Assembly: GCF_035084215.1 (NCBI RefSeq)
Contig: NW_027139623.1
Location: forward strand, 2,232,001 to 2,296,000
Length of the DNA stretch: 64,000 nucleotides
Reading direction: 5' to 3'
From: Heptranchias perlo
Taxonomy: Eukaryota
The position numbers were made by a program, and so were the translations under genes. Below, piece after piece: positions 19,473 through 64,000 of the stretch. Position 1 is the stretch's first letter, and the number at the start of each line of letters is the position of its first letter. The notes beneath the pieces were generated by a model. It did not search any database. It worked only from the letters and a program-made list of their open reading frames with translations, and was not told the origin of the DNA.

Positions 19473-20096
19473 ACCCGACCCGGCTTCAGCACCAAGTGCA
19501 ACAAAGGCTCTTTTCAGAGCCACCAAATCGGCGATGGAAAGAGCTGAGATCTCCTTTGTTGAAATGGCATGTCCTTGAGAAATTTGCTTAAACGGGAAAT
19601 GTACAAAGGGGAGGGAGCAGATATCAGACGGGCAGGGACAGAATAAATACCTCACTCACATCCAAACACAAATTTCACACATTCTTTATTCAGTAATCGC
19701 TGACACTATAAACAACTTATCATTCAGCATCTGTTGTATACATCTGGGTAAAATAACAAACCGAGGCAGACTTGTCCGAGGATGGGACGGTAAATAATAA
19801 CAAGCGTCCCTGGTATTTCTGCATCCCACCCACCCAGTTAACAATTCTGACGGTTCTGGTATTTTGTCTCATTCACCAGACAAACTGCAAATTTCAATCT
19901 ATTGGAGGTTGGCGACATCTGCGGTCCGGAAGCGAGTACTGCAACAGACCGATATGGATCATTTGTGTTTAACAAGTTATTGTTAGTTTCTCGAATCGGA
20001 ATCAAGTCCTTTGACAGACAGTAACCAGCCCTTTCATAAATACAGTGGGTGGCTCTGAAAAGAGCCTTTGGGTTATCAGATTAAATCTTGGTCGCT

Positions 20097-20537
<441 letters not shown>

Positions 20538-38890: not shown

Positions 38891-39380
38891 CAAGTTGACT
38901 ACATTTCCAACCGAGCTACAAGGTGACTTGACATTTTAGATAAATGAATGGTGGAAACTGGAACAAATAGATTTCTTTCTCGTGAAAATGTCAATTAGAT
39001 CTTGTGGTTTCAACGTCATTTAATAACTTTAATAATTTGGACTCAGAAATAAATTAGTTTGGTTTCAAGGCCCAGTTAAATTTGCAGCATAATACACGAT
39101 TAAGATGCTGATTATATCCTCCTATTTCTCCCAATCAGTTTGTATATAAGTCGCCTTATATCAAATACAGGAGACACAAGGTGGGATTCCATCTCTGCAT
39201 GTATTTTAACAGAATTGAATTCAATTTTATTAATAAATGAATGCCCGAGAATCAGTCTGTTACTGCAACTCTATTTGTAACTTTCAAAATGGAATTGGGT
39301 AAATACTTTAACGGGGAAAAAAACATGCAGGACTATGGACAAAGTGCAGGCGGCTGGGACTAATTGGATAGCACTTTAAA

Positions 39381-41803: not shown

Positions 41804-41836
41804 TTGTCTTTGGGGCTCGGCGGAGCATTTCTCAAG
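41804..41836 (+). CDS. putative 33-bp signal-peptide mini-exon (S2) of the Ig receptor: xVFGARRSISQ
   Basis: Acceptor TTTTCTCCTTTTAG and donor AAG|GTTAGT; phase 1-1, joins in frame to 47018 (G+AA = Glu). Confidence 0.6.
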
Positions 41837-42174
41837 GTTAGTGTCGACGTTTTTCTCTAAAATAATGAAATTTAATAACTACTGTTCTAGACTGCTAAAT
41901 CATTCAGTTAGTTTTTATGTAAATGAATTTGATTACTGTAACCAATCGTGTTGTGTCATTGGTAGCAGTAATACAGGTCTGTATCTCAGCAGCTGTCATT
42001 GCGAAGGCACTATGGGATATGTCCATGTTATGGACAGCACATCTATACACTTACTCTGTCGTGGGTTACAGAACTGCAAACAACACTCCAGATGGAACAT
42101 AGGGACACAGGAACAGGTGTTGACCATTCGGCCCCTCGAGCTTATTCCACCATTCCTTTAGACCATGACTGATC

Positions 42175-42720
42175 TTGCTTAGACCACACTTGGAGTACTG
42201 TGAACTGATCTGATCTCCATATTATAAAAAGCACATTGGGGGACTGGAGAAAGTGTAAAAAGAATTACTAGGCTCATTCTAGAACTGAGAGGTTATACCT
42301 ATTAGGAAAGATTGAGCAGGCTGGGGCGCTTTTCTCCGGAAAAGAGAAGACTGATGGGTAACCTGATAGAGGTCTTAAGATTATGAAATGGTTTGTTAGG
42401 GAAGACGTAGTGATGATGTTTCCACTTGCGGGGAAGACCAGAACTAGAGGCCATAAATATTAGGTAGTCACTAATAAATAGGGAATTCAGGAGAACCCAG
42501 GGAGTGGTTAGACGGTGGAACTCGCTACCACATGTTGTCGTTGAGGCAACTGGCAGAGAGGCATTTAAGAGGAAGCTAGATAAACACATAAGGAAGAAAG
42601 GAATCGAAGGATGTGCAGATAGGGTTAGATTTGGAGGGAGGGACAAGGCTCGTGTGTACCATAAACACCAGCATGGAAATGTATGGCCGAAAGGCCTGTA
42701 TCTGCCCTGTACATTCTGTG
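42175..42720 (+). mobile_element. CR1 LINE 3' fragment
   Basis: RPHLEYCEL, FSPEKRRLMGNLIEV, VVRRWNSLP. Confidence 0.8.
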
Positions 42721-42949
42721 TAATTCTATGTAATTCTATGAACTGAATCTTAACTCCATTTACCCGGCTAGGTTCCATATCCCTCAATAACCTTGCCGAA
42801 CAAAAATCTATCAAAATATTCCAGGTTACTTGATTTATGGAAAAGTGAGGCAATATGGAAAAGTTTGTGGCGGGTGTGTGGGGACGTTGTTGGAGGTAGC
42901 CTTGATAATAAAAGATGAGATACAGAGAGAAACATCTTATCTCAAAAAA

Positions 42950-45518
42950 TCAGGAAGTAGAATCAGAATGGGTGGAGTTGAGAAATAACAACGAGCAGAA
43001 AACACTGGTGGGTGTAGTTTAGAGGCCCCCTAACGGTAGATACAGTGTTGGACAGAGTATAAATCTGGAAATTAGAGGAGCATGTAACAAGGTTAATGCA
43101 ATAATCGTGGGGGACTTTAATCTTCATATAAACTGAGCAAACCAAATTGGCAAAAGTAGTCTGGAGGAAGAGTTCATGGAATGCATTCGAGGCAGTTTTC
43201 TGGAAGAAGATGTCGAGGAACCAATTAGGGAACAGACTATTTTAGATCTGGTATTGTGTAATGAGACAGGGTTAATTAGTAATCTTAGAGTCAAGGATCC
43301 TCTGGGGTAGAGTGATCAAGATATGATAGAATTTCACATTGTGTTTGAGCGTTAAGTCCGAAACTAGGGACTTAAATTTAAACAAAGATAATTATGTAAG
43401 TATGAGGGGCGAGTTGCCGAAGGTAGATTGGGAAATTAGATTAAAATATATGGTGGTTGATAAGCAATGGCGAACATTTAAAGAAATCATTCATAATTAT
43501 CAACGAATATATATTCTCTTGAGGAATAAAAATCCATGGGAAAAGTGATCCATCCGTGGCTAACTAGAGAAGTTAAGGATAGTATTGGATTAAAAGAAAA
43601 GGCTTACAATTGTGCCAAAAGGAGTAGTAAGCCTGAGGATTGGGAGGGTTTTAGAAATCAGCAAAGGATGACCAAAAAGTTGATAAAGAAGGAGAAAATT
43701 GAGCTTGAGAGTAAATTAGCAAGAAATATAAAAACAGGTTATAAGAGCTTCTACAAGTATGTAAAAAGGAAGAGATTAGCGAAAGTAAACGTGGGTCCCT
43801 TAAAGGCAGAGACAGGAGAAATTATAATGGAGAATAAGGAAATAGCAGAGACGATAAACAAATACTTTATATCTGTCTTATAGTAGAAGACACAAAAAGC
43901 ATACCGGAAATAATGTGGAACCAAGGGTCTAATGAGAGTGAGGAACTTAAAGCAATTAAGATTAGTAAAGAAAAAGTCCTGGAGAAATTAATGGGGCTAA
44001 AGGCCAACAAATCCCCTGTACCTGATGGTCTTCATCGTAGGGTTCTAAAAGAGGTGGCTGTGGAGATAGTGGATGCATTGGTTTTGTTCTTCTAGAATTT
44101 CCTAGTTTCTAGAACAGCCCCTGTGGATTGGAAGGTAGCAAATGTAAACCCGCTATTCAAGAAAGGAGGGAGAGAGTTAGCCTGTAAAAGGGCACTTAGA
44201 AAAACATAATATGATTAGGTAGTGTCAACACGGTTTTATGAAAGGGAAATCGTATTCGACCAGTCAATTAGAGTTTATTGAGGATGTAACTTGCAGGGTC
44301 GATAATCGAGAACCAGTGGATGTAGTATATTTAGATTTTCAAAAGGCATCCAATAAGGTGCCACAAAAGAGGCTGTTACACAAGATTAGGGCTCATGGGA
44401 TTGGGGTAATGTATTAGCGTGGATTGAGCATTGGTTAACGGACAGAAAACAGAGAGTAAGTATAAACGGTTCATTTTTAGATTGGCAGGCTGGAACGAGT
44501 GGGGTGCTGCAAGGATCAGTGCTTGGGCATCAGCTATTTACAATCTATATTAAAGACTTAGATGAAGGGACCCAGTGTAATTTATCCAAGTTTGCTGACG
44601 ATACAAAGCGAGGTGGGGAAGTAAGTTGTGAAGAGGTCGTAAAAATGCTGCAAAGGGATATAAACAGGTTAAGTGAATGGACAAGAAGATGGCAGATGGA
44701 GTATAATGTGGGGAAATGTGAGGTTATTCCCTTTCGTAGGAAGAATAAAAAACAGAATATTTTTGAAAAGTGAGAGACTAAGAAATGTTGGTAGTCAGAG
44801 GTATTTGGGTGTCCTTGTACATGAATCATAGAAATTTAACATGGAGGTAAATCAAGCAATTAGGAAGGCAAATGGTATGACAGCCTTTATTGCAAGGGGG
44901 TTGGAGTATAAGAGTAAGGAGGCGTTGTTGCAATTTTACAGGGCTCTGGTAGACCACACCTGGAGTATTGTGTACAGTTTTGGTCTCCTTACCTAAGGAA
45001 GGATACACTTGCTTTAGACAAGGTTCAACAAAGGTTCACTAGATTAATTCTTTGGATAAGAGGATTGTCCTATGTGGAGAGATTGAATAGAATGGGCCTA
45101 AACTGTCTGGAGTTTAGAAGAATGAGAAGTGATATCATTGTAACGTATAAAATTCATAGTCGATTTGACCGGATAAATGCAGAAAGGCTGTTTCCCCTGA
45201 CTTGAGAGTCTAGAACTAGAGACCATAGTCCCAACATAAGGGGTCGGCCATTCAGGAACGAGATGAGAAGGAATTTCTTCACTCAGAGGGTCCTGAATGC
45301 TTGGAATTCTCTTCCCCAGAGTGCTTTGGATGCTCAATCGTTGAATAAATTCAAAGCTGAGATCGGCAGATTTTTGGACTCTTGGGGAATCACTGGATAT
45401 GGGGATCGGGCGGGAAAGTGGAGTTGAGGTAGAAGATCAGCCATGATCTTATTGAATGGCGGAGCAGGCTGGAGGGCCCATATGGCCTACTCCTGCTCCT
45501 ATTTCTTATGTTCTTATT
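42950..45518 (+). mobile_element. long decayed CR1 LINE ORF2 (endonuclease end, RT, 3' tail)
   Basis: IIVGDFN, ILDLVLCN, KSFYKYVKRKR, KSPVPDGLHRRVLKE, QGSVLG, KFADDTK; many stops and frameshifts. Confidence 0.93.
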
Positions 45519-46269
45519 GGGTTGCAACTTCAGATGCCCGAAAAAACGTGCACTAGCGCCATCTGTCGGCGAACAATGCCAACACAAAAGATGATCACTG
45601 TTATCAATCCCTTTTGGGCTTGGGCAGAATCGCATAAAATCGACACTGAAAAGTGAGAATCAATTAATATTTTGAACATGACAATTTAACATCGATGTTT
45701 TTCCTTCTTTATGGTAGTGTGGAGACAATGTTATATTTCCCTTTCGTTAGATATAGTTTGGAAAAGCTTAACTCCCAAACAGGCAGGCGGGGAAAATTAG
45801 CTGGAGTACCAGTCATCTCAGAAATGTGCATTTTCACACATCACATTACTTTCAAACAATGGGAGTTCGGCCGAAACTTTCCAAAGATATTTACAGCTCT
45901 GTAGGGGGGTTGATTACATAGAATTAGTTAGAATGTACAGCACAGAATCGGACCATTCGCTTCTGCTGGTCTATACAGGGTTTAGAATGACCGCTTCCCA
46001 CACTGCCCCCACAGCCCTCTGTTCCCTTCTCCCTCGTGTATGCATCTAGCCCCCCTAAGATGCACCAATGCCACCTGCTTCAACCACTCCACCTGCCAGC
46101 GACTTTCACATTCTCTGTATGAGAAGAAATTCCTCCCAATTTCTCAGTTAAAGGGACAACCGGCTTGGCGGAGATCCAAAATTAAGTTGGGCGTGGTTTC
46201 TCGACCAAGGGAGTTTGTGAGCTCGGCGAGCCAATCAGCGACAGAGATAGCTGAGGGAGAGGTTAAAGG

Positions 46270-46855
46270 TCCAGCTTCTCTCTCTCTTTCTCCCGCTCAC
46301 TTCCTCTTTCCATTTCTTTTTCATTTCAGTCACCTCTCCTATTTCACCACACTCTCTCTCTCTCATTGCCCATTGTCTATTCCCTGCCTCTCTTTTTCAT
46401 ACTCTCTCTTTCGTCCCACTGTCTTCTTGCACTTGTCACTCCCTCCCGCCCACTCTCTCATTTTTTCTTCCTATCCAGCCCCGCTGATACCACTCTTTCC
46501 ATTTCTCCTGCTTCTCTCACAGCATTCCTCTCTCTGTTTCTCTTCCACTCCTATTTTTCATTCCTCTCTGTCGCTCTGTGTTTCTCTCCTGCCCTCTCCC
46601 AAGCCTCTGGCGTGATCTCTTTTAACCCGTTGAATCTTCCTTCTACGCCCCGATCTCCATCTCTCTCAGTCGCTCCATCTCTCTCTGATTACCATTTCCT
46701 TGTCTCTCTCTGTGGTTCTCTCACTCCCCTCTGTCTGTCTGTCCGTCTCTCTCTCTTTGTCTCCCTCGCTGTTTCCCCTTCTCTTTCCCTCTCACTCTTT
46801 CTGCCTGTCTATTTTCCGTATCCTCTCTCTCTCTCGCTTTCTCTCTTCTATCTAT
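46270..46855. repeat. CT-rich low-complexity polypyrimidine tract
   Basis: About 580 bp almost entirely C/T. Confidence 0.85.
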
Positions 46856-47017
46856 AAAATAGCTCTGTAGTTTTATGCTCATAAGAAAACACAAACTGAT
46901 CTATGTTCTCCTGTTGGTTGGGAGAGCAGCGCCCAGTTTCCCATTCTCTGTACCGCTTAGCCGCCAACGTGCGTTGTTGGTAACTGCTCATTGACGGTCA
47001 ATGTCTTTTTTACATAG

Positions 47018-47302
47018 AACTTCTGGTGAAACCTGAAATTACCATGAATGAAGAGACTGGCGTGTACTTACCCGGAGAAACCATCACGATTAACTGCCTT
47101 GACGACAAAAAATACCGGAGTGGCAATTATGCCTTTTACAAAGATGGGAACGAACTGCAATTTTCCACCAGCAGCACAGTGTATCAAATTGCAACAACCA
47201 ACAGAAATGATCAAGGAGATTACCAGTGCCGGTATAGTTATCGGATTAACGGGGAATGGAAATGGTCCTCGTTCAGTGACTCGGCGCCAGTAATAGTAAC
47301 AG
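47018..47302 (+). CDS. Ig receptor exon, C2-type Ig domain D1
   Basis: TTTTTTACATAG acceptor, G|GTGAGT donor, 285 bp, phase 1-1; KPEIT...GETITINC...FYKDG...DQGDYQCRY. Confidence 0.9.
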
Positions 47303-48084
47303 GTGAGTGAGACAGGGCAGGGTTTTTGCAACTTTACAACGAGGCAAATGTTTCAGTTATGTGGCGATATTAGATAAGATATGATTGTACTCCTTAGAGC
47401 AGACATGAAAAAGGGGAGATTCAATAGAGATGTGCAAAATGATGATGGGTTTTGATAGAGTGGACAGGGAGAAACTGTTCCCACTGACAGAAGGTTCGGC
47501 AAACAAAGGTCACAGTTTAAGGTAATTGGCAAAAGAGCCAGGTAGGAGATGAGGAAATTATTTTTACGCAGCGAGTTGTCATCTGGAATGCACCGCCTGA
47601 AAGGATGGTGGAAGCAGGTTCAGTAATAACATTCAAAATAAATTGTATATATACTTTAAAAGGAAAAAAATGCAGAGGTAATTGGTAAAGAGCGGTGGGA
47701 GTTGATCTAATTGCGTATCTCTTTCAAAGAGTCTGCACTGGCACGATGGACCGAATGGCCTCCTTCTGTGCTATAAGATTCAATGATTCGTTGTGAACAG
47801 GTGAATAGACGCCGCACTTCACAGAAACTAAACAGAAAACAGAGCAGCTAATTTGGTGAAAATGCCCGGCCGCATATTGCACTGTCATTGGACAAGTTTC
47901 ATTCCAATAACATCGCCACAACTGAATATTAAAAGTTGGATAATTGTTTGCAGAGTTTTAATTGTTTTAAACACAAACGTCTAGGAATGAATCGTGACTC
48001 ACAGTTAACTGTAGCTGGAGAATACTGTAACCAAGAGCCAATGGGAAGACTTATAAAAATATTGGACAAGATTCGTTTCCTACG

Positions 48085-48630
48085 ATTACATAGAATTTAC
48101 AGCACAGAAACAGGCCATTCGACGCAACAGGTCCGTGCCGGCGTTTATGCTCCACAAGCGCCTCCTCCACCCTATTCCTTTCTCCCTCATGTATTAATCT
48201 AGCTTCCCCTTAAATGCATCAATACTATTCGCCTAAACTACTACTTGTGGTAATGAGTTCCACATTCTTAGCATTCTTTCGGCACAGAAGCTTCTCCAGA
48301 ATTCCCTATTGGATTTATTGGTGAATTTCTTATATTTATGGCCCCCGAGTATTGGTCTCGCCCACAAGTGGAAACATTTTCTCTCCGTCTACCGCATCAA
48401 ATCCCTTCATAATCTTAAAGATCTCAATCAGGTCACCCCTAAACCTTCTGTTTTCTCGAGAAAAGGGTCCCAGGCAGTTCAGTATCCCCTCAGTGTTCGA
48501 ATCGTCCAATAAATCGCTTTGCACCTGTCCAGTGTAATATGGATATCCTTTTTGTAATATGGAGATCAGAACTGTAGACAGCACTCAAAGTGTGGTCTAA
48601 CTAAAGTTCTATGCACGTTTAACATATTTC
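48085..48630 (-). mobile_element. CR1 LINE 3' fragment
   Basis: FSRENRRFRGDLIEIFKIMKGFDAVDGEKMFPLVGE. Confidence 0.8.
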
Positions 48631-49104
48631 TCTTCGCAGAGATTCTTAAACTAAAATGTGCAAGACAGCTGCAATTCTGCTTGTCTGATTCCAGTCGGTT
48701 GCTGGAGGAATACAAGGATGTCATACAGATTATGGAGAAATTACAACACGGAAACAGGCCGTTCGGCCCAACCACTTCGTGTTGGTGTTTATCCTCCACA
48801 CGAGCAATAGTCCTAATCCCATGTGCGTGCTCTGCACCCAATTCCCTTCAACCGTCGATCGAACCTATTCTTAAATGTTGACATGGTCTCTGCTTCATTC
48901 CACAGCCTCGCAACACTTGCTTTAAAATGTCCCTCCTGCTCCCTGCCCGAAATACCATTTTTAACTTATCAATCTCCACTCGTTCGGGCTCCCGGAAACC
49001 GCCTGTGTCTCTATACTCGGTTCCAACCCTTCTGAAATTTAAAAACGGCCACTAAATTACCCCCATTCTCCTTTGTTACAAGGAAAACAGCCACAGTTTT
49101 TGAA

Positions 49105-49460
49105 TAAAAGAAGGAAGTACCATTTAGTTGGCGCCTTTTATGACCTCTGGACGTCCAAAGCGCTTTACAGCCAATGAAGTACATTTGAAGTACAGTCACT
49201 GTTATAATGCAGGAACCGCGACGGTCAAATTGCACTCGGCAAGGCCCCACAAACAGTAATGTGATAATGATCAGATAATCTGTTTTAGTGGTGTTGATTG
49301 AGGGATAAATATTTGGCTCAGGACACCAGGGAAAACTCTCCTGCTCTCCTTCGAAATAGTGGCGTGGGATCTTTTACATTCACTTGAGACGGCAGCCGGG
49401 GCCTCGGTTTAACGTCTCATCTGAAAGACGGGACATGTGACGGTGCAGCAGGCTCTCAGC
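49105..49460 (-). mobile_element. DeuSINE-like SINE body and tail
   Basis: Reverse strand has GTCTTTCAGATGAGACGTTAAACCGAGGCCCC and TTGGCTGTAAAGCGCTTTGGACGTCC; same family as 52670-52790 and 63805-64000. Confidence 0.65.
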
Positions 49461-49914
49461 TCAATATTCACTCCCAGTGAGGTCATTGACTCTCATCCCC
49501 AAGAATGATAATGATGAAATCGAGCCCACCATCACTTACCTCCTTTATTTGAGATTCTAATCTCCACGGTTTAACAGAGAAGTTCACTCTTTTTAATCCG
49601 GTTTGCACCACAGGCTAAATGACCAGAAATTGGAATTTCAAATCCACGCATTTCCATGTGCCCCTCGTATCGCAGAGTGCAATTTCAGGGCTAAAATCTG
49701 ATTTTGGAAATAGAACCACAAACTTATTTCTTTTCTCTCGCAACTCAGTTTGATTCCACTAATGAATGGTTAATTCCCGTTTTGAGGAACTTCAGCCATC
49801 GATTCCAACTGTTCCCGAAAATACAGCGCAATCGTTATTGAGTTACCAAACTTCCACCGTACACATAATCCACAGATCCATTTCTAATTGTTCTTTCCAT
49901 TCATTTTGCCACAG

Positions 49915-50208
49915 ATCCGATAACAACGCCAAGGATATCCCCTGATAAACCGACTGGGGTGTATTTGAAAGGAGAGACGGTTACCATTACCTGCATCGTG
50001 ACCGGATACTATCGCGATAAAACCTTCCATTTTTACAGAGGTAGCTCACCGCTGTACTCTGATCAAGTCCTCGCAAAGGACAACATTGCAACATTCAAGG
50101 TCAGCAGAGCAGACCAAGGAGGGCGGTACCAATGTAAATATGGAACCACCGTCAATAGAAGGTATTTATGGTCCCAGATCAGCGAGGCTGTGACGGTCAC
50201 TATAGCAG
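49915..50208 (+). CDS. Ig receptor exon D2
   Basis: CACAG acceptor, G|GTGAGT donor, 294 bp; GETVTITC...FHFYR...DQGGRYQCKY. Confidence 0.92.
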
Positions 50209-50960
50209 GTGAGTGAAGGGGTGCAGAGATTAGGAAAATGTTTATTCAACACCATTAGGGGTAGATTTTAACTGTGCGCTCGGGTAGAATGGATGATAGT
50301 GAATCGGCAGGCTGTTTCACATATCTCCTGATTTTTATTTCCATTGACTTCAATGTAGATGATAATTGGGTGGTGTATAAAACGGGTGGAGTATAAAATG
50401 AGCTGCAGATGCTCGACCGCCCGTTCTTCAGTAAAAATGGAGTAGAAATCCGCCACGGGCAGTTGTGTAAGACGGGCGGCATCGGATCGGCCGCCTGATA
50501 TCAGCCCGATCCGATATTCAGATCCAGTGATGTCATTGATTCACATCCCCAAGAATGATAAATAAAAAATCGACCATCACTTCTCTCCTTTATTTGAGGT
50601 TCCAATCTCCACGGTTCAGCAGAGAAGTTCACTCTTTGATATCCGATTTGCACCATAGCCTAAATGACAAAGAATGGGAATTTCAAATCAGCGCATTGTC
50701 CATGTTCCCCTCGTATCGCAGGGTGCAACTTCAGGACTAAAACCTGATTTTGGAAATAGAACCACAAACTGATTTCTTTTCTCTCGCACCTCAGTTTGAT
50801 TCCACTAATGAATGGTCAATTCCCGTTTTGTCGAATCTCAGCCGGCGATACAAACATTTCCCCTCAACACCGCACAATCGGTATGGAGTTCCCAAACTTC
50901 CAGCGTACGCTTAGTCCACTGGTCTATTTCTAATTGTTCTTTACATTTATTTTACCACAG

Positions 50961-51254
50961 ATCCGCTAACAGTGCCAGCGATATCTCTTGATCAACCAAG
51001 TGGCGTGTATTTGAAAGGAGATACGGTGACCATTACCTGCACCGTGGCCGGAGACGATCGCGATAAAACCTTCCATTTTTACAGAGATCGCCAAACGCTG
51101 TACTCTCATCAAATCATCACAAAGGATAACATTGGAGCATTCACGGTCAGCAGAACAGACCAAGGAGGGAGCTACCACTGTCAATATGGAACCTCCGTCA
51201 ATAGAAGGCAGTTATGGTCCCAGCACAGCGAGGATGTGACGGTCACTATAGCAG
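50961..51254 (+). CDS. Ig receptor exon D3
   Basis: 294 bp, phase 1-1; GDTVTITC...DQGGSYHCQY. Confidence 0.92.
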
Positions 51255-52959
51255 GTGAGTGAAAGGGGCGGGAGGAGCAGAGATTGTTTAAATATCTATT
51301 CAACAGCATTAGGGGTAGATTATGACAATGCGTTATCGTAGAATGGACGATAGTGAATCGGCAGAGCGTTTCTCATCTTTTCCGGTTTTTCTTTACATTG
51401 ACTTCAATGGAAATGATAATTGGGTGGTGTTTAAAATCTGTGGAGTATGAAATGTGCTCGATCGCCCGTTTCAGGCCTGCGCCTCAGACGGATTTATATT
51501 CCACTGTCAGAAATTATGATATCAATCCCGACTAAATCTTCATCTCACAGCCCAAGGCGATAGTTCGAGAATAATTTTAACTGAACACGCCCGGCGGAAA
51601 AGAGGCGGGTTCGAGTCTGCCACTTGTTTAAACTCTTCCCGATTTTGCCCCAAGTGACTTTAATGGAGCGTAAAATCGGTCAGAGTTTTAAACGGGCGGT
51701 CGACAGAACTTATCCAACTCCCACAATGCCGGTTGTGTTAAAATTGTCCTTTTTAACTCCGTGCTGAGGAACTGGAGAATTCCAGAGGTGATGGCGTTCA
51801 TTTCAGCAGTTGGCCAGAGAATAAATATGAAGATGTGAACGCAAGACCTTCGATAAACAAAACAATGTAGGTTGTGTGATATTATTACATGACCTCTGTT
51901 CCTGATTTCCAATTTTACACCCTACAGGTCTCAATTAACAGAGCGAACAATTTAATATTATAATAAGAGCACAGCGCCGGGGTTCTAACTCCATTGAGTG
52001 TAGAGTCACCTCATGAGGCTCTGCCAGACTGGCTGCTCTTGTCACGTTGCAAATTTTCAGTCTGATACCCGCAACTGCGTGCAGAGATTTTAAAAATGAA
52101 CCTGTTTTGGGGGTTGCTTTAACTTAAATACGTTGTGGCTTTCCCTATATCGACAGCACCTCCCAAACCCGCGACCTCCACCATCTTAGAAGGACAAGGA
52201 CAGCAGGCACATGGGAACAACACCACCTGCACGTTCCCCTCCAAGTCACACGCCATCCTGATTTTTACAAGAACCACCGTTCCTTCATTGTCACTGGGTT
52301 AAAATCCTGGAACTCCCGACCTAACAGTACTGTTAGAGAACTTTCACCATACGGACTGCAGCGGTTCAAGAAGGCGGCTCACCACCACCTTCTCAAGGGC
52401 AACAAGGGATGGGAATAAATGCCGGCCTTGCCTGTGACGGCCACCTCTGTAATGATAAGAACGTATTTCGGCCACACCAAAAAAATCCTTAATCTGAAAT
52501 GCGAATCCCCGGTTTAACGGAGAAGTTCACTCTTTCTATCTGCGTTCTCACCTGGGCTAAATTAGCAGAAATAGGAATTTCAAATCAAGCATTTTCCTTG
52601 TTCCGCTCGTATCCCAAAGTACATTTTCTGGCCTAAACCCTGAGTTTGGAAAGAGAACCCCAGCTGTGGTGCTGCCAATTGATTTCCTACTTTACAACAG
52701 TGACTACACTTCAAATGTACTTCATTGGCTGTAAATCGCTTTGGGAAGTCCTGGGATGGTGAAAGGCGCGATATTGATGCAAGTCTTTCGGTGTTTCTTG
52801 TGAAACAAATCCAGAATCCCACGTTTGTAGAACCCCAGTCAGCGATGCAAACCCTTCCCGTCAACACAGCTCAATCGTTATTGAGTCTCCAACCTTCCAG
52901 TGTACAAGGGAACGCCAGAGATCCATTTCTAATTGTTCTTTCCATTTATTTTGTCATAG

Positions 52960-53253
52960 ATCCGCTAACAACGCCAGGGATATCTCTTAATCTTTGGAGT
53001 GGTGTGTATGTAGAAGGAGAGATGGTCACCATTACCTGCACCGTGAGCAGAAAAAATCGCGATCAAACATATCACTTTTACAGAGAGCAGGAACTGCTGA
53101 ACTCTGGTCAAATCACCACTGAGAACAACAGCGGAACATTCCCGGTTACCGGTACAAACCAAGAAGGGCGGTACTACTGCCAATATGGAATTTACGTCAA
53201 AACAAGACGGCTACTGTCCCAGCGCAGCAAGGCTGTGACGGTGACTATAGCGG
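52960..53253 (+). CDS. Ig receptor exon D4
   Basis: 294 bp, phase 1-1; GEMVTITC...NQEGRYYCQY. Confidence 0.92.
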
Positions 53254-53274
53254 GTGAGTGAAGGGGAATATACA

Positions 53275-53915
53275 TTGTTCATATATCAAAGTGAGGGTCT
53301 CTGCGCTCTGCTCCTGACAGGGTCTCTGTAACAGTGTTCAATACTCAATGTGAGGGTCTCTGCGCTCAAACCCTGACAGGGTCTCTGTAACAGTGATTAA
53401 TAGTCACAGAGAGGGATTCTGCGCTCAGCTCGTGACAAGTTCTCTCCGACAGTGTTTAATATTCACAGGGAAGGTGTCTGCACTCAGCTCCTGACAGGGT
53501 CTCTGTAACCGTGTTTAATATTCACAGAGAGGGTCTCTGCGCTCAGCTCCTGACAGGGTCCCTGTCACAGTGATTAATACTCAGAGTGAGGGCCTCTGCG
53601 CTCAACCCCTGACAGGGCCCCTGTCACATTGTTTAATGCTCAAAGTGAGGGCCTCTGCGCTCAACCCCTGACAGGGCCTCTGTCACATTGTTTAATGCTC
53701 AAAGTGAGGGTCTCTGCGCTCAACCCCTGACAGGGTCTCTGCAACAGCGAATAATAGTCAGAGAGGGAATCTGCGCTCAGCTCGTGAAATGTTCTCTCTA
53801 ACAGTGTTTAATATTCTGAGGGAGGAACTCTACGTTCAGCTCCAAACAGGGCCTCTGTAACATTGCTTAATATTCACAAAGTATCGGCGCTCTGCTCCTG
53901 ACAGGTCTCAGTAAA
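53275..53915. repeat. 59-bp intronic minisatellite (about 11 units)
   Basis: GAGGGTCTCTGCGCTC at 53293, 53352, ... Confidence 0.9.
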
Positions 53916-54439
53916 AATTGATTAGAAATCCGCCACGGGCAGTTGTGTAAGACGGGCGGGATCGGACCTGTCGTCTGATATCAGCCCGATCCGATATTCA
54001 GATCCAGTGATGTCATTGATTCACATCCCCAAGAATGATAAATAAAAAATCGACCATCACTTCCCTCCTTTATTTGAGGTTCCAATCTCCACGGTTCAGC
54101 AGAGAAGTTCACTCTTTGATATCCGGTTTGCACCATAGCCTAAATGACAAAGAATGGGAATTTCAAATCAGCGCATTGTCCATGTTCCCCTCGTATCGCA
54201 GGGTGTAATTTCAGGACTAAAACCTGATTTTGTAAATAGAACCACAAACTGATTTCTTTTCTCTCGCACCTCAGTTTGATTCCACTAATGAATGGTCAAT
54301 TCCCGTTTTGTCGAATCTCAGCCGCCGATACAAACATTTCCACTCAACACCGCACAATCGGTATGGAGTTCCCAAACTTCCACCGTAACTTAATCCACAG
54401 ATCCATTTCCAATTGTTCTTTCTATTTATTTTACCACAG

Positions 54440-54733
54440 ATACGCCGAAAAAGCCACGGATATCCCCTGATCAACCAAGTGGCGTGTATTTGAAAGGAGA
54501 GACGGTGACCATTACCTGCACCGTGGCCGGAGACTATCCCGATAAATCTTTCCATTTTTACAGAGATCGCCGACTTCTGAACTCTCATCAAATCATCACA
54601 AAGGACAACATTGGAACATTCAGAGTCACCGGAACAGACCAAGGAGGGAGGTACCACTGTCAATATGGAACCTCCGTCAATAGAAGGCAGTTTTGGTCCC
54701 AGCTCAGCGAGGCTGTGAGGGTCACTATCGCAG
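54440..54733 (+). CDS. Ig receptor exon D5
   Basis: 294 bp, phase 1-1; GETVTITC...DQGGRYHCQY. Confidence 0.92.
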
Positions 54734-55091
54734 GTGAGTGAAAGGGGCGGGAGGAGCAGAGATTGTTTAAATATCTATTCAACAGCATTAGGGGTAGATT
54801 ATGACAATGCGTTATCGTCGAATGGACGATAGTGAATCGGCAGAGCGTTTCTCATCTCTTCCGGTTTATCTTTACATTGACTTCAATGGAAATGATAATT
54901 GGGTGGTGTTTAAAATCTGTGGAGTATAAAATGTGCTCGATCGCCCGTTTCAGGCCGCCGCCTCAGACGGATTTATATTCCACTGTCAGAAATTTGTGAT
55001 ATCAATCCCGACTAAAATTTTACCTCACAACCCAGGGTGATAGTTGGAGAATAACTTTAAACGAACACGCCCGGCGGAAAGGGGAGGGTTC

Positions 55092-56033
55092 GGGCGCTAA
55101 ATTGGGCTGTGTAGCGCCCATTGTTTCGGCCCGACACGGCCTTTTCGATATCCAAGATGGCGTCTTGGATGCTCACGCACGTTTCCAGAGTGACATGCGC
55201 CAGACGCTATTTTAGTATAGGAGTTAGCGCAAGCTAACAACTCACTGGTCACACACACTGGCAGCTATTCAACCATGACAGGCACATCATCCAGACACGC
55301 GTCACACTTTCTTGCAGGAGAAGATGTTGCATATCAGGAAGCAGCAAGTGGCGGTGGCATTTAGCCCATCGAGCCTGTTCCACCATTCAATGAGATCACG
55401 GTGGACCTGTGACCGAACTCCATATACCTGCCTTAGCCCAATATCCCTTCATACCCTTGGTTCACAGAAATCTATCAATCTCAGAATTAACTTTCACAAG
55501 TGAGCGAGCATTAACTGCCGTCTGCAGAAGATATTCCAACCATCTCCCACCCTTTGCGTGTAGAAGCATTTTCAAGCTTGACTCCATCACGTGCTGGCTC
55601 TTAATGTTGGACTATATCCCCGCATCCGAGTATTCAAGAGTAGGAAACCTCCAAGAACAGTTACAAATGTCTCAGCAGCCAGAAATCATAATCCTTCCAC
55701 TAACCTGTAAATCCTGCATGGTTAGTTTAAATAGCGCCGGTGAGTGTCCTCCAGGCACTCGAAGACATGTTCAGATGGTCGGGGTTAAGACTGTGCGTTG
55801 AGTTGTGCGTTAAGTCCCAAAATGGTGTCTATCACTCTAAATCAGCGTTGCAATCTGATTGAAGCTATTTTCTCCTTACTTTACATGATTCCGGCGTTCG
55901 TTATCTGCGCCTGCTGCTAACTCTAATACCAAGGTGGCATCTAGCGCATGTCACGCTGCAAGACGCCATCCTGGATGTCGAAGAGGCCACATAGCACCCA
56001 AACAGCGGGCGCTACACGGCTCAATTTAGAACC
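55092..56033. mobile_element. non-autonomous DNA transposon with long imperfect TIRs (contains a CR1 tail)
   Basis: GGGCGCTAAATTGGGCTGTGTAGCGCCC...CAAGATGGCGTCTTG at the left end is the inverted match of CAAGACGCCATCCTGG...GGGCGCTACACGGCTCAATTTAGAACCC at the right end. Confidence 0.7.
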
Positions 56034-56039
56034 CTCAGT

Positions 56040-57305
56040 TTCTCAAATCTTTCCTCGTATCTGAAGTCTTTCATCCCTAGTGCTATTCTAGTAAATCTGC
56101 TCTGTACCCTCTCTAAAGTCTTGACATCCCTCCTAAAGTGTGGTGCCCAGATTTAGCCCCAATACTACAGCAGGAGCCTAACCAGTATTTTGTAAATGTT
56201 CAGCACAACTTCCTTGCTTTTGTATCATTTTCATCTGTTTATAAAGCCAAGAATTCAGTATCCCCTTTTAGCAGCCTTCTCAACTTGTCCTACCACCTTC
56301 GAAGTTTAGTGCATGTATACCCCCAGTTCTCTTTTTTTCCCGCATCCCCTTTAAAATTGTACCATTTAGTTTATATTGCCTCTCCTTTTTCTTCCCACCA
56401 AAATGAATCAATTCGCACTTCTCTGCGTTAAATTTCATCTGCCACGTGCCTGCCCATTTCAACAGTCTGTCGATGTCCTCCTCAAGTTTGTGACCATCCT
56501 CCTCACTTCTTTCTATGTTTCGTATCACCTGCAAAATTTGAAATTATGCCCTGTGTCCCCAAGTGCAGGTCATTACCATATATCAACAAAGAGCAGCGGT
56601 CCCAACCGCGACCCCTGGGTGACACCACTGCACACTTCATTCTAGTTTGAAAATCAGCCACTACTGTCTGCTTTCTGTCTCTTTGCTTATTACGTATCCA
56701 CGCATCCACTGCCCTTTAATCCCATGAGCTTCAATTTTGCGAACAAGTCTATTGTATGGCACTTTTTGAAACGCCCTTTGAAGATCTTTAGACACAACAT
56801 CAACCACATTACCCTTATCAATCTTCTCCAGCAATCCATCAAAGAACTCAATCAAATTAGTCCAACACAAATTTACCTTTTAAAAATCCGTGCTGGCTTT
56901 CATTTATTAACACACATTTTTCCAAGTGCCAATTAATTTTGTCCCGGGTTATTGTCTCTAAAAGTTTCACCACCATCGACGTTAGTCTGACTGGCCTGTA
57001 GTTGCCGGGTTCATCCCTCCACAATTTCCACCCGTACTTTTCTCAGCAAGCTGGGATGCATCCCATCCGAACCGGGTGACTTTTCTACTCTGAGCTTTGC
57101 TAACCTTTTGCGTGCCTCGTCTTTATCTATTCTCATCCTATTCAGTTTCTTCTCCTTTACTGGAACATTGGCAGCATCCTCTTCCTTAGTGATTACAGGT
57201 GCAAAGTACTCATAAGGTATCTCAGACATGCCCTCTGCCTCCACAAGAAGATCGCCATTTTGGTCCCTAATCAGCCCCACCCTTCCTTTGACTTCCTTTT
57301 TACTA
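56040..57305 (-). mobile_element. CR1 LINE ORF2 fragment
   Basis: KSPGSDGMHPSLL, CWTNLIEFFD, DLQRAFQKVP, NFAGDTK, WQMKFNAEKCELIHFG. Confidence 0.88.
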
Positions 57306-57469
57306 TTAACTCCACTGAGTTTAGTGTTACCTCACGAGGCACCTCTAAACTGGCTGGACTTGTAACATTACAGGTTTCTCTGTCAGATAAGCGAAACTGC
57401 GTGCCGAGATTTTCAAAATAACCCTGTAACTCGGAGTACTTTAATGAATTACATTCTGGTTTTCCATAT

Positions 57470-57790
57470 CATCTCACTGGGTTGGATTTCGACAGTAACG
57501 CCCAAACCTGAGACCTCCAACACCGAGAAGGACAAAGGTAGCAGCTGGATGGGAACAGCATCACCTCCAATTTTCCCCCAAGTTATAAATCATCTCGACT
57601 GAGGCACATGTCACCGTTCCTTCATCGTCACTGTATCAAAATCCTGGAACTCCCTACCTAGCAGCAATATGGGAGCACTTTCACCACATGGACTGCAGCT
57701 GTTCAACAAGGAGGCGGCTCACCACCACCTTCTCAATGGGCAATTAGGGACGGGCAACAAATGCTGGCCTGCCCAGCGTTGCGCACATCC
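57470..57790 (+). mobile_element. LINE-type 3' end of another family (also at 52135-52445 and 62390-62525)
   Basis: Shared GGACTGCAGCGGTTCAAGAAGGCGGCTCACCACCACCTTCTCAAGGGCAATTAGGGATGGGCAATAAATGC-like block. Confidence 0.65.
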
Positions 57791-58215
57791 CAAAGCCCGC
57801 TAACACTTAACTCCTTTATTTGAAATGGGAATCTCCACTGTTTAGCGGAGACGTTCATTCTTTTTAATCAGGTTATGGCTCGGCTAAGTTACCACAAATG
57901 CGAATTTCAAATCAATGCCTTCCCTCTGTTCCTCTGGTATCCCAGAGCGAAATTTGAGGGATAAACGCTGATTTTGAAAATAGAACCCCAACTGATTTAT
58001 TTTCTTCCGTTTCATCCCACTAATGAATGGGCAATTTCCCCCTTGTATATAGTATCCTCCTCAGTGCTTACAACTTCTATGTTACGTGTCATCTGCAAAC
58101 AGTTGAAATTATGCCCTGAATACCAAAGTCCAGGTCATTGATATTTTGGTTCACAAAAAATAAGTCTGTATTGCGGTTGAATCGATTGTCACTGCTTTTT
58201 CCTTACATATTGCAG

Positions 58216-58509
58216 ATCTACCCAAACCAAATATATCAGTGGATTCTAGTCTTGTTTTGAAGGGTGGAAAAGTTACCTTTAATTGTACAAACCCCCGGGA
58301 CCATCCTGGCTTCACATTTTACTTATACAGACACCGAGAAGCGAATTACTCGGATGTCCAGACTGCTGCACGGGACAATTCTGTCACTTTCACCATCACG
58401 AATATAGATCACACCGATGGAGGAAATTACACCTGTCTGTATAAAGGGGATGTGTGGGGAAGGCTGCTAACGTCGGCTGAGAGTGACCCTGTATATATAA
58501 CTGTAAGAG
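58216..58509 (+). CDS. Ig receptor exon D6 (membrane-proximal)
   Basis: 294 bp, phase 1-1; DLPKPNISV...GGKVTFNC...FYLYR...DGGNYTCLY...SAESDPVYITV. Confidence 0.92.
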
Positions 58510-59769
58510 GTGAGTGAGATTCACACGGTGAATGTGTTCATCCGACCGCAGTACAAGGCATTCCGTGTTGTAATTAACGATCAAAACTAGCGTGGAAATG
58601 ACATCCAGGGGTAATATTTGGTCTTGGGCTGTATCGGATCGTGCATCCGTTTTACGCCCCGCCTGATATTCAACCCCATTGGCTGCAATAGAACTTGAAT
58701 ATCGGGCGCAGCGTAAAACAGGCGGCCTATGCGAAACTGTCCAGTTTTCCCTATCGCCCAATGGCCTCTTAACGCTTATTTCACGAACTGTTCGCTATTT
58801 ATCCTGTTACTGAGGAAATGTTCAATCACCAAACGTTGAACGGTTTTATTTCTCCAACTCTGATGAAAAGTTTGATTCACTAGTTGTGTCCTTTAGTTGC
58901 TCTCCGATCCCCTAATAGTCCAGGGTCGACTCCCAGAGAAGCTGAGAAAAAATAACACCCATTCTACCAAATTTAACACAAGGTAATTTGAAACTAGTAA
59001 GCACAATGCACAAAACAGGTGCTGTAAACGTACAGCCCGTCAGTGAGCTTCTGTGGAGAGAGCAGGTGAGTTCTGATCAAGGTCCCCACCTGAACCGTCA
59101 CCACATCTGTTCACTCTGTCAATGTGCAATTTTGACCCAGTGATCATTCAGAATGAAACTGACAGAATGAAACTGATTCATTCCCACACTGTCGCTATTA
59201 AACTTTTGACACCAGCTGGTAATAATTAAACATTCACCTTGTTCCAGGTCCACGGTTAATATCCAATGAACGAATCAATGAATTAATGAGGCAATTAATT
59301 AATCGACCAATGACAATTGAGCTTTGTGCCGAGTCGTTTTTAACAGGTGCATCGTGATGTCATCACGGTCCCAAACCACTCGGGGCCTCATTACTGATTC
59401 ACTGACTTTGAATCATTGAATCAATGGGAGAGATTTATTGGTGGAAAAGAAAGGAGGGGAGACAGACTCAGAGTATCAGAGACTGAGGTACTTTATCAAA
59501 ACAGTGCAAAGCTAGGGACAGAGGAGGAAAGTGGGATTAATTGGACAGCTCTGTCAAAGAGCCAGCAGTCACAATGGGCAGAATGGCCTCCTTCTGCGCT
59601 CTAAGATTCTATGTGAACATTTTAATGCCTTATTTTTTTCTGTTATGCGGCCCACTCCGTCTACACAGTCCCAGTGCCTATTTTGTTCTTCTGTCAAGCA
59701 GCAGATTATTTATTCCGTGTAGATAATGTTGGTTAACTTGATTCCACTGTGCCCCTTTATCTCATTTAG

Positions 59770-59859
59770 ATAAATCCGTTGCGCTGGAGGTTGGTGTTGG
59801 CTCTACTGTGGTTCTGATTCTTATCCTTGCTCTGTTGGGTGTGTGTTTCTGGAAGAAAG
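59770..59859 (+). CDS. Ig receptor transmembrane exon
   Basis: CATTTAG acceptor, G|GTGGGT donor, 90 bp, phase 1-1; DKSVALEVGVGSTVVLILILALLGVCFWKK. Confidence 0.88.
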
Positions 59860-61849
59860 GTGGGTTAAACAGTATGTAATATCCGTTCATTGCCAACACA
59901 CGGACCAAGCTAACTGTCGTCTCCATTCTTCCCCACCACTAACCATCCACCATCTGACCCCTAACCTCGGATAGTAAATATAAGGAGATCATGAACTGAA
60001 AGGTGAAATCGCTGGTGGCGAAGCTGAAAGATACCTGGTCTGAAATCTGTCTCTGGAGCTGGCGCAAAACGGGCGGTATCGCGATTGCCGCCTGTTATTC
60101 ACCCCACCCGATATTCAGTCCCATTAATGTGAATTGAACTGAACGTCAGATGGAGCGTATAAAGGGCGCCCAATGCCTTACCGCCCGTTTTCCGGTACTG
60201 CCCAAAGACCAATTTCGACCCCATAGTGTCACATTATGAAGAATGACTAGAACAACTCGGGCTTCTCAGTCTGGAAGGAGACACCTGAGAGGTGATTCTA
60301 TGGAGTTTCTTAAGATAGTAAATGATATGGAAGGGATAAATCTGAAACATGACATGAAATGAAGTTATAGGTTTGGGCAAAGGGAGACAGGTACAAACTG
60401 GTGAAAGATAATCTAAATTGGATATAAGGAAGTTCTTCATCACGCAGTGATCATGCTAGGAATGGAATCCCAGATACAGTTCTGGAGGCGATTACCCTCG
60501 CATCATTGACAGGATATTGAGATACGGCAACGGGGGTGGGGGCTGTAGGGTCTTTCTAGGAGGGGGCGGTGAATTAAGATGCAATGAATGCCCTTCCTCA
60601 TCTGTACATGCCTTGTGATCCAAAGTCGAAAACAACCCTCTTCTGCCTGGGCCTCTTCTGACCACTCTACTTCCTAACCCTTCCCACTCACCCTTGTGTG
60701 AACCTCTCCAACCTGATTCTATATATTTTTATATCTCCTCATCCATCACCATTAAATTCATCTCTTCCATAAAACCCACGAACTGCTCAAATGACACTTT
60801 CCCTTCTGAGCTTCTCGCCACCCAAATTCCTCACCTCAGTTGCCTGAGTACCAATCCACTGATCTTGTCCCTCCCTTTTGCCTCAGTAGTCATATCCTGC
60901 AGAACTGCTGTCATCACACAATTCCCAGGAAATCCATCTCTCAAACCTCCCTGCTCTCCAGCTCCCCATATCCAAAGGCCGCTTTCTCTATGAAGTGTTT
61001 GAAGGTGAGGTTCTGTTACAAGTATGCTCCGATTTCTCCCACCACTTCCTGTTCAAGGCCTTCCCATCAAGCTTCCATCCATCCATCCATAATACCAGTC
61101 ACTTCCTGTGTGATTGCTTACGTGGCTTGTTATCATTCCTCTTCTTCCTCGACTTCTCCACTCCTTTAAAACATCGGTCATTCCTCAAGTGTCTGTCCTC
61201 CATACACCGCCTCCCTGGAACTGCCCCGTTTATTTCCACTCCTACCTCTCACATCATAGTCCTAACATTTCATCCATTGACATCGCCTCCCTTGGCTGCA
61301 CAATCACCTCTGCCGTGCCCAGGATTATCTCCTTTGACCCACTCATCTTCATCATCCATACCCTACACCTTAAGTACATCGTTGAGCAGTATGGGGTCCA
61401 CTCTCCTCGGTACCCTTACTCTCTCTCTATCTCTCAGCGTCCTCCATGGCCACCACAGCGGTGACCACTCGCTCCAACTGAATAAAACATTGAGACATTT
61501 GCAGCCAACACGTTGTCCAGATTAACATATGTAAACATCGAAGCCATCTTCTTCAGCTCCTCAAATCCTTGATGTACTTCTGGCCTGTCAATGGAGAGTG
61601 AAATTAGGCGGCTTCTGGAATGGGAACCCTGTCCGTACCCGCCCGGTTCCCACTCGGCGGGTTAGGTTAAAATTATAACATACCGGGTTTGTCCATAATC
61701 GAGTTGGATGTGGTAACGGGAGGGAGATGGTTCTGGAGAATAAGTTTCAGTGGCCCAAAGACCTTTACTGCTCCTTGACCTTTCTCATGTTCCCATTTTG
61801 TAAGCCAGTAATTGGATCCGTATTTCTAATACTTATGTTTTCTTCTCAG

Positions 61850-61877
61850 GGAAGTGTAAACGCAACAGAGAAATGAG
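61850..61877 (+). CDS. Ig receptor cytoplasmic exon 1 (GKCKRNREM)
   Basis: TTTTCTTCTCAG acceptor, AG|GTGAGA donor, phase 1 to 2, open in frame. Confidence 0.7.
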
Positions 61878-62004
61878 GTGAGACATTAAGTGTTGAATTT
61901 TAAATTTCAACCGTACGCAACCGAAATAAAACCCACCAGCAAGCATTCGGAACAATTTGTCTGTATTCTGCATTTTAAATTTTAGAATCGAGCTCTCCCA
62001 CTCG

Positions 62005-62160
62005 CAGTCACACTTACACTCACACTCAAACACACAATCACACACACATACACACACAAACACAAGCACAAACACACAATCACACACACGTACACACACA
62101 CACAATCACACATATCAAACACAATCACACGCACACACATGCGCACACACTCACCCAAAC
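62005..62160. repeat. imperfect (CA)n microsatellite
   Basis: CA-rich run seen directly. Confidence 0.85.
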
Positions 62161-62877
62161 ATGTGCAGGTTTCATTTACTTGAATAATTTTCATTTTATC
62201 TCCCTTTCATTTCTTTAAATGTCTTTTCAGCCACGTTGTTATTATGCTATGGCCTTTCTCATCTGGGGATCCCTCATTACCCACCGCTCAATGAGATCAG
62301 AAATTCCTCTGTTTGCTCTGTGTAATGACATCGTGAATACATTTGTGACGATGTCGTTAAACAGAGCAAACAGAGTAATTGTGAAGCAGTGTGGGAGAAC
62401 CTTCACCACACGGACTGCAGCGGTTCAAGAAGGCGGGTCACCATCATCTTTTCAAGGGCAATTAGGGATGGGCAATAAATGCTGGCCTCGCCAGCGACGC
62501 CCACATCCAGTGAACGAATTAAAAAAATGTCGTTCCTTAGTTATTTCTCGCCAAGTGGATTCTGCGCTTGTAAAAAGGACTGTCCAACGGGAGGAAATAT
62601 TCTCAAACGATTTAATGATGTCGCTACATATAGTGAAAGCAGGACACGGTTCCTCAATAATCGCCCGACACGTCAAACAAATTGTTAGTTTTCGGGCAAG
62701 AAAAAAAATTCTCAGGAATATACTTGGTTTTGCAACAGCTGGATAAAACCATTCTCCTGACCATGCACCGAGGGTCATTAATACATATAAGGCGGGATCC
62801 ATTCACTACCTGTCCAAACATATGAGCTGTGCCATGCAAAATAAAATGATTGAATTGACGATTTCTATTCTTTTAAG

Positions 62878-62921
62878 GACCACGGCGCCTCCTAGCGACC
62901 AAACCAACGAAGCCCTGACAT
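62878..62921 (+). CDS. Ig receptor cytoplasmic exon 2 (RTTAPPSDQTNEALT plus first base of the next codon)
   Basis: TTCTATTCTTTTAAG acceptor, T|GTAAGT donor; phase 2 matches the previous exon. Confidence 0.7.
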
Positions 62922-63804
62922 GTAAGTTCTTTTTTGCATTCGTGCATCCGGAATTACCTTTGGCGTTTAATGTTTTCTTTTACATTTAACGAACAAGACT
63001 AAACAAAAACCTATTAACAGTAATAGTTTGTAGACTTTGTATTGTATTTAGCAAACCTGCTGTGAATCACAGAGTGTCAATCATTTCTGAAATATTTTGT
63101 GAACCTGACCAAGAAGCAATATAAACATTGATTTTATATTTTCACCATTCAATCCACTGTGGAGTGAAAATCCAGTGTAGCCCATAGTTGAAGGGGAATA
63201 GCCGGAAAAAGATCAAAGGAGCCGGGCGCACAGACGTAATTCAGTTCCCCTTTTAAAATTCGATGTTACGTGCCTGTTTGTATATAATAGGAAGTTTGCG
63301 CATGCATTGTTTAAATTGTTATAGATTTACAGTAAAGTACTCAAATATTAGTCAAGTTCTGAAGCAATGAGAGTTAAGAGGTTTTTGCAAACAGATTGAG
63401 CAGGTGGGAGATGCAAAATCGAGGTCCTACAGCTCCACTGCTGGCCGGCGGGTTCAATTACACGATGGCAAATTTACATCGGCAGATTTTTATTGAAAAA
63501 ATGAATACAGTACCGGAATTTATAGTGGAAAAAGTGACGCAAAAGTGTGACAAAAGTAACAACCGGAAGTACGTTTTGGTAAATAGGAAGTGGATGTAGG
63601 CATAGGACTTTTAACATATTGCTAATTTAACTCGCAGGGCAATGTGCACTCAGACTCAAGGCTAAGTATAGTCTGCAGGTGAAATGTAGCTGGAGGGTTG
63701 GGGATTACCGGACGAGGTGGTGTAGATGTAATTCAATCATCATTTTTAAGACATTCTGATCTTTTAAAAAACACTTCACTTTTTATTACAATTTATTATT
63801 AGGT

Positions 63805-64000
63805 GTCAGTCCTGGCTCAGTGGGGAGCAATCTCATCTGAGTCCAAGGTTGTGGGTTCAAATCCCACTCGGTGAGAATTAAGCACAAATCCAAGGCAGTG
63901 CAGCACTGATGAAATTCAGCACTGTCAGGGGTGTCGTCTTTCGAATGAAACGTTAAATCAAGGTCATGTTTTCCCTCTGAGGTAGATGTAAAGTATTGTA
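63805..64000 (+). mobile_element. tRNA-derived SINE head (DeuSINE-like)
   Basis: Box A TGGCTCAGTGG, box B GGTTCAAATCC, then GTCTTTCGAATGAAACGTTAAATC. Confidence 0.7.

Follow-up and report, generated by a model that had tools for sequence, protein, structure and literature searches.

Gene structure and encoded protein

The window analysed here, a stretch of 64,000 nucleotides from the shark Heptranchias perlo (contig NW_027139623.1; G000:C1456:2232001-2296000 in our labelling, where C labels are contigs of this genome), carries on its plus strand a gene for an immunoglobulin (Ig)-domain receptor that continues beyond the window end. The complete model comprises 13 exons in a single stop-free frame and encodes a type I membrane protein of 695 amino acids with six C2-type Ig domains (D1 to D6), an uncharged transmembrane (TM) core and two inhibitory motifs of the immunoreceptor tyrosine-based type (ITIMs). 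A first-pass annotation, made from the letters of this DNA, had described a chain of ten exons without stops between 41804 and 62921. All ten were found; their borders are AG/GT and they share a single open frame. The extent had to be revised: the gene starts earlier, at 31763, and ends beyond the window with two more exons. The features are listed below in window positions; L001 is the stretch starting at the first base after the window end.

31763..31793, plus strand: leader exon 1 (31 coding nt, phase 1); not in the first-pass annotation; the same leader opens the NCBI models P0044 and P0046
41804..41836, plus strand: leader exon 2, a 33-nt mini-exon, found at 40 of 40 scored genome matches (the best 40 of 83 candidates)
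47018..47302, plus strand: Ig D1, C2 type, the most divergent domain; Pfam match, structural model and folds
49915..50208, plus strand: Ig D2; borders, frame and Pfam match
50961..51254, plus strand: Ig D3, duplication unit common with D5; borders, frame and Pfam match
52960..53253, plus strand: Ig D4; borders, frame and Pfam match
54440..54733, plus strand: Ig D5; borders, frame and Pfam match
58216..58509, plus strand: Ig D6, the membrane-proximal type common across the family; Pfam match, folds from a paralog
59770..59859, plus strand: TM exon, uncharged core at about residues 614-634; frame, and a helix in the paralog model
61850..61877, plus strand: cytoplasmic exon 1, 28 nt; length agrees with an RNA-type contig
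62878..62921, plus strand: cytoplasmic exon 2, 44 nt, whose last base opens the tyrosine codon of ITIM1
62922..64000, plus strand: start of an intron that runs past the window
L001:672, plus strand, beyond the window: alternative acceptor giving an ITIM-less isoform
L001:977-1017, plus strand, beyond the window: exon completing ITIM1 (LTYAVL, Tyr661)
L001:2650-2715, plus strand, beyond the window: last exon, with ITIM2 (STYAVV, Tyr690) and the stop codon

All 13 exons are open and their splice sites are canonical. The six Ig exons are in phase 1/1 throughout, and all of them pass the Pfam cut-offs of Ig_2 and Ig_3. D1 is of the C2 type with a cysteine spacing of 44, and the canonical tryptophan is absent from these domains, for which reason a tryptophan-based Ig pattern used as an exon finder matched no exon. 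Of the domain ends previously written as P.PxIS...S..SDP, the S-x-x-S part is kept, while the literal SDP occurs in D6 only (1/6), the other five retaining just S-x-x-S. The hydrophobic TM core has no charged residue, as had been reported, a glutamate sitting just before it. The inhibitory type, proposed at a time when no ITIM had been seen, was borne out by the two motifs located beyond the window, which lie 29 residues apart, the tyrosine codon of the first being split by an intron. Leader exon 1 was found upstream of the mini-exon in six of the seven paralog regions read. In two of the seven leader exons read, a stop immediately preceding the main ATG ends the frame of an in-frame upstream ATG (window 31736-31765); the other five read through.

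Transcript evidence and isoforms

Four runs of one sample, with no tissue label and assumed to be RNA although none is recorded as such, were aligned from D6 to the 3' end. One contig aligns to D6 and again 6 kb further downstream. The 164 letters that separate the two alignments equal in number the last two bases of D6 plus the TM and the two cytoplasmic exons (90+28+44), an exact fit to the predicted lengths. The same contig uses the alternative acceptor at L001:672, so that a stop arises before ITIM1; this acceptor turns the intron-split tyrosine codon itself into the stop and removes both ITIMs. The NCBI isoforms P0008, P0041 and P0043 end at the same point, and the ITIM-less tail is likely a decoy form. 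Contigs in two runs start aligning exactly at the last-exon acceptor, one of them with 139 preceding letters. In places over D6 and the last exon, contig sequence agrees with this copy without a mismatch, and the contigs from D6 to the tail may derive from this gene or from a near-identical paralog. Co-splicing of the chain, implied by the first-pass annotation, is supported by RNA only over the part between D6 and the last exon, while the junctions from the leader to D5 are based on splice signals and on a same-length NCBI paralog model of H. perlo (XP_067836613.1; 695 amino acids, 670/695 residues identical, the 25 differences mostly in D5-D6).

Relationship of the Ig domains to known receptor families

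The first-pass annotation had left open a choice between LILR-like and FcR-like kinship. [quoted passage not shown] A profile of 40 family domains scored about 26-36 bits per domain for LRC chains, about 18-19 for FCRL5 and Fc-gamma-RI and about 14 for CEA, these being total scores divided by the domain counts of the chains. Its alignments reach almost to the C-terminus in most LRC domains, and in FCRL5 only to position 80 of 101. The strongest control for this placement comes from a second C2 family, carried by contig C511 of the same genome, since the scores of its profile are reversed: FCRL5 reached 308 bits (about 34 per domain) and PirB 75 (about 12 per domain). A profile built from a lizard protein alone gave 27-47 bits for the six Ig exons, the best score in 20 shuffled windows being 9.3.

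In phylogenetic analysis, a branch supported at 95/92 separated the family and an LRC-type protein of a lizard from the remaining sequences, in a tree whose C-terminal columns were trimmed as a possible bias and in which 66 of 88 rows were kept. After addition of 12 shark FCRL-like domains, a branch holding 26 chondrichthyan and five lizard LRC-type domains received 97/93 (83 columns; a single LRC reference protein, lizard P0036), and none of the 12 FCRL-like domains fell inside it. Several FCRL-like domains of C511 sit beside frog FCRL domains, and the lizard domains nest among the chondrichthyan ones; P0036 itself has LILR, KIR and OSCAR as hits in the PDB. The approximately unbiased (AU) test rejected a joint clade of the family with frog FCRL (p 5e-05), a rejection inflated by the fact that frog FCRL is not one clade itself. 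In a test against the D1-D5 subtypes of FCRL, the window domains lay outside the frog and shark FCRL-like domains. No V-set N-terminal domain of the CD22/Siglec or CEACAM kind was found, D1 being C2-type, and no V-type exon pattern occurs in 214 kb around the gene. Grouping with CEACAM or CD22, the outcome that would have contradicted the first-pass annotation, was not seen, CD22 being compared by fold only.

Structure comparisons used a D5-D6 model from paralog P0007, whose D6 is identical (predicted local distance difference test score, pLDDT, 77 overall and about 90 in the domains), and a D1 model with pLDDT 92.8. The best folds for D6 were LAIR1 (Z 14.3, root-mean-square deviation (rmsd) 1.7, 93 aligned residues), CHIR-AB1 (14.2) and LILRB4 (14.1), with KIR3DL1 within 13.9-14.3; lower values were obtained for PECAM-1 (13.1), FCRLA (11.7), CD22 (11.5), Fc-gamma-RI (11.3) and CEACAM5 (11.0). 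D1 was closest to CHIR-AB1 (Z 14.2, rmsd 1.6, 88 aligned) and PirB (13.7). The margin in favour of LRC folds is about 2.4 Z for D6 and about 1.5 Z for D1.

Paralogs with an arginine in the transmembrane segment

The uncharged TM exon was recovered at 40 of 40 scored genome places (the best 40 of 69 candidates). Twenty loci, counting this gene, were read beyond D6 in the downstream direction: 16 have an uncharged TM exon, three an arginine-bearing one and one neither within the stretch. The arginine TM exon was found in seven places, as S-P-I-R in four, in-frame N-L-I-R in two and frameshifted N-L-I-R in one, all with a C-terminal glutamate. Some paralogs carry the feature of activating partners, an NxxR TM segment with an acidic residue at its end (motif as given in PMC6557307). 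Among 36 database proteins, the arginine type occurs in five (Heptranchias, Mustelus, Carcharodon) and an ITIM with a second tyrosine motif in 11. In a reading of 11 genomic loci, the last exon was out of register at five, where the second motif is unconfirmed from DNA. The NxxR segment is described as the most conserved LRC element and as a module known from amphibians, birds and mammals (PMC6557307), and Xenopus receptors bearing it associate with FcR-gamma (PMC2413239).

A genome search with PF11628 returned one intact match, a CD3-zeta-like TM exon at G000:C11:52321803-52321904 (46 bits to CD3-zeta, 37 to FcR-gamma), and a second match that is a fragment with a stop. An ITAM (immunoreceptor tyrosine-based activation motif) profile had no match in the genome, nor did it match the controls.

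Family size and genomic setting

A paralog count across the genome found 70 copies of D6 at least 70% identical among the best 150 of 595 candidates, three of them partial or with a stop. These are distributed over contigs C1275 (35), C1456 (13, the contig of this gene), C1499 (12), C1562 (9) and C2 (1); the number would be nearer 49 if C1562 and C1499 are haplotype duplicates. On C1456, D6 identity between copies is 93-100% and the distance from one copy to the next about 0.1-0.6 Mb. The shark origin suggested in the first-pass annotation agrees with NCBI proteins of H. perlo, which are 79-100% identical over D6. The automatic names of paralogs in that database are inconsistent (FCRL5, KIR3DL1, LILRA3, OSCAR, IGSF1, A1BG, NCR1), and such models, XP_067836613.1 among them, cover family members without a family analysis. 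Relatives were found in nine shark species, one sawfish, one skate and one stingray; word-based searches, the sole means by which distant relatives in bony fish and tetrapods were sampled, retrieved no chimaera or mammal protein, which is weak evidence.

A replication-type histone cluster (H2A, H2B, H3, H4, H1; window 8235-21813) lies 10 kb from the receptor gene, and zinc-finger and single-exon G-protein-coupled receptor (GPCR) frames follow downstream. Histone genes were found at most 30 kb upstream in four of six paralogs read, with flanks aligning at up to 99%; the joint duplication of flanks and histone genes makes it likely that large duplicated blocks carried the family through the genome. 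The 214 kb around the gene contain no further Ig exon of the family.

D2 to D5 are 73-89% identical to one another in DNA and are products of internal duplication. Ratios of nonsynonymous to synonymous change (dN/dS) were 0.59-2.04 over the six pairs and above 1 in four, which, with small counts, is suggestive only as a sign of selection. The D3 and D5 exons diverge more than their flanking introns (10.9% against 4.3-5.6%, P 5e-4); as their synonymous sites differ equally, exchange of exons between paralogs explains this as well as selection does.

With regard to synteny, CNOT3 was located on C43 and C1364, and NDUFA3 and a third Tweety gene on contigs of 28-38 kb; PRPF31 was searched for in the genome and not found. 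No family exons were present in the 200 kb read near CNOT3 or in the small contigs with LRC flank genes. On the unplaced contig C511 (1.24 Mb), diverse LRC-type Ig exons occupy the interval between about 22 and 822 kb. FCRL-like exons come next, on the minus strand, covering about 858 to at least 990 kb, and an RBFOX-family gene lies beyond them; the contig also has an arginine TM exon (A-L-I-R-L). It is possible that the LRC-like and FCRL-like clusters are linked there. Tentatively, sharks and rays might hold a complete and greatly expanded LRC-type paired system (50-70 close copies plus the diverse 0.8-Mb cluster), older than the bony vertebrates and signalling via CD3-zeta, with FcR-gamma presumed missing, and the adjacency on C511 might be a trace of one ancestral complex that split into the mammalian LRC and Fc-receptor loci.

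Interpretation and alternative explanations

The gene most probably encodes an inhibitory leukocyte receptor of the LRC kind (LILR/KIR/CHIR), paired with likely activating paralogs; we place the probability of this reading at roughly 0.78. By analogy with mammalian and chicken LRC receptors, ligand binding would cluster the receptor, Src-family kinases would phosphorylate Tyr661 and Tyr690, and SHP-1/SHP-2 would be recruited and damp ITAM-Syk signalling, while the arginine paralogs would signal via an adaptor of the FcR-gamma/CD3-zeta type and see overlapping ligands. As to the ligand, MHC (major histocompatibility complex) class I and some other self or microbial molecule are each a tentative guess, and immunoglobulin Fc and collagen are each rather more doubtful.

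Like inhibitory LRC receptors (mouse PirB with six Ig domains, human LILRB1/2/4, long-tailed KIR, LAIR1, chicken CHIR-B), the gene has tryptophan-less C2 domains encoded by one phase-1 exon each, a two-exon leader, an uncharged TM segment, tandem ITIMs, arginine-TM paralogs and a large family of variable domain number. Unlike them, it has leader exons of 31 and 33 nt, four of its six domains are recent internal duplicates, and the shark genes lie scattered between blocks of histone, zinc-finger and GPCR genes instead of in tight tandem, with no one-to-one orthology. Leader exons of LILR and KIR measure 34 and 36 nt; the literature searched yielded no paper giving the 36-nt figure for the LRC mini-exon.

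Several observations weigh against this interpretation. A profile of the six window domains ranks FCRL5 over PirB (105 vs 80 bits; best single domain 24 vs 20), and the top Foldseek matches are Fc-epsilon-RI and Fc-gamma-RIIa, with LILRB2 third, all with a poor two-domain rmsd. D1 compared with CD22 gives Z 12.7 and with Fc-gamma-RI and FCRLA 12.5, tied with LILRB4 and LAIR1. The lizard reference was found by similarity to the query, and the tree contains no mammal or bird LRC sequences. The mini-exon, at 33 nt, has neither the 36 nt of LILR and KIR nor the 21 nt of FcR and FCRL. Of the seven arginine exons, four have S-P-I-R in place of N-x-x-R, one N-L-I-R copy is frameshifted, and the PF11628 search of the genome found no FcR-gamma.

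The alternative that survives best, unlikely as it is, holds that the gene belongs to a chondrichthyan paired family (e.g., skate MDIRs) whose likeness to the LRC stems from a shared ancient C2 origin and from convergence of signalling modules, without orthology to the tetrapod LRC. Skate MDIRs also carry C2 domains. They are a published multigene family of a cartilaginous fish with activating and inhibitory forms (PMC3031540), signalling modules are known to be swapped between receptor families (PMC6557307), and family exons were not seen beside LRC flank genes in the stretches read. The nesting of lizard LRC-type domains among chondrichthyan ones argues against this view, as does the description of MDIRs as CD300/TREM/pIgR-like, with V-type similarity (PMC3031540); the present gene is C2 only and is set apart from them by that description, the surrounding 214 kb having no V-type pattern.

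An inhibitory FcR-like receptor of the FCRL/LITR type, possibly binding shark immunoglobulin, is more improbable still. The automatic NCBI name of the closest paralog is 'Fc receptor-like protein 5', the six-domain profile and Foldseek point the same way, and Xenopus FCRLs (XFL) are likewise paired multi-C2 receptors with a two-exon leader and an NxxR TM segment (PMC2413239), the teleost LITR sharing the multi-C2 paired design and split leader. Set against this, the per-domain scores and folds favour LRC, the AU test disfavours a joint clade, and a separate FCRL-like family exists on C511 with domains outside the clade of this one. The leader exons measure 31/33 nt and not 30/21, the mini-exon thus not being the 21-nt one, and the 30/21 arrangement occurs only in a fraction of XFL genes (PMC2413239).

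That the present copy is silent or defective, carried along in a segmentally duplicated histone/zinc-finger/GPCR block, with RNA and NCBI models stemming from paralogs, would fit the near-identity of D6 copies (93-100%), the co-duplicated histone flank, the paralog-type letters in the D6-spanning contigs and the stop that cuts the upstream ATG in two of seven leader exons, yet it is very improbable given 13 open exons with canonical splice sites and contig pieces free of mismatches to this copy, and the family-level reading stands even if the copy is silent.

Relation to earlier reports and significance

Wang, Belosevic and Stafford (Immunogenetics, 2021) reportedly described one LRC-like and two fcrl-like genes in elephant shark, and Cannon et al. 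(2006) are said to have described the skate MDIR family; the existence of LRC-like genes in cartilaginous fish is thus probably no novelty in itself. The literature searched held no account of an expanded paired LRC-like family in sharks, and the available parts of PMC4810170, PMC8302630, PMC1458963, PMC6795676 and bioRxiv 10.1101/2021.06.11.448072 contain no description of the family. C2-only LRC homologs and FcR-gamma have been reported as absent from sharks and first present in bony fish (PMC4016189), and Fc receptor genes and the gamma chain as absent from cartilaginous fish (PMC5742104). In the bamboo shark, B cells express genes that carry the names fcrl3 and fcrl5 (PMC11372145). Automatic gene names are known to mislead for such receptors (PMC6557307).

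The present data suggest that paired receptors of the LILR/KIR kind predate the divergence of sharks from bony vertebrates. Should sharks and rays hold a large paired family, the LRC-type origin would shift to the jawed-vertebrate ancestor; such a family would offer concrete candidates for receptors of shark MHC class I or immunoglobulin and bears on how sharks set the thresholds of natural killer and myeloid cells. The signalling design is textbook and the gene is one of many near-identical copies, so the family matters more than the single gene.

Other features of the region

An extra leader exon 1 (L003:9532-9661) lies about 30 kb downstream and is followed by 70 kb without a family Ig exon; it is probably an orphan remnant. 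Single-exon rhodopsin-family GPCR frames, which we take to be GPR139-like, and C2H2 zinc-finger genes lie between receptor copies (L002:4063-4986, L003:139-1029, L007:5216-6259). A family member of Scyliorhinus torazame (P0058) is listed with an SRCR domain (PF00530), which may occupy a gap between Ig domains at residues 212-318. Within the gene, the intron after D4 contains a minisatellite of about 59-nt units (window 53272-53900), and introns 1 and 2 hold decayed pieces of LINE-type retroelements (window 39364-40620 and 42950-45520), presumably CR1/L2-like by their appearance.

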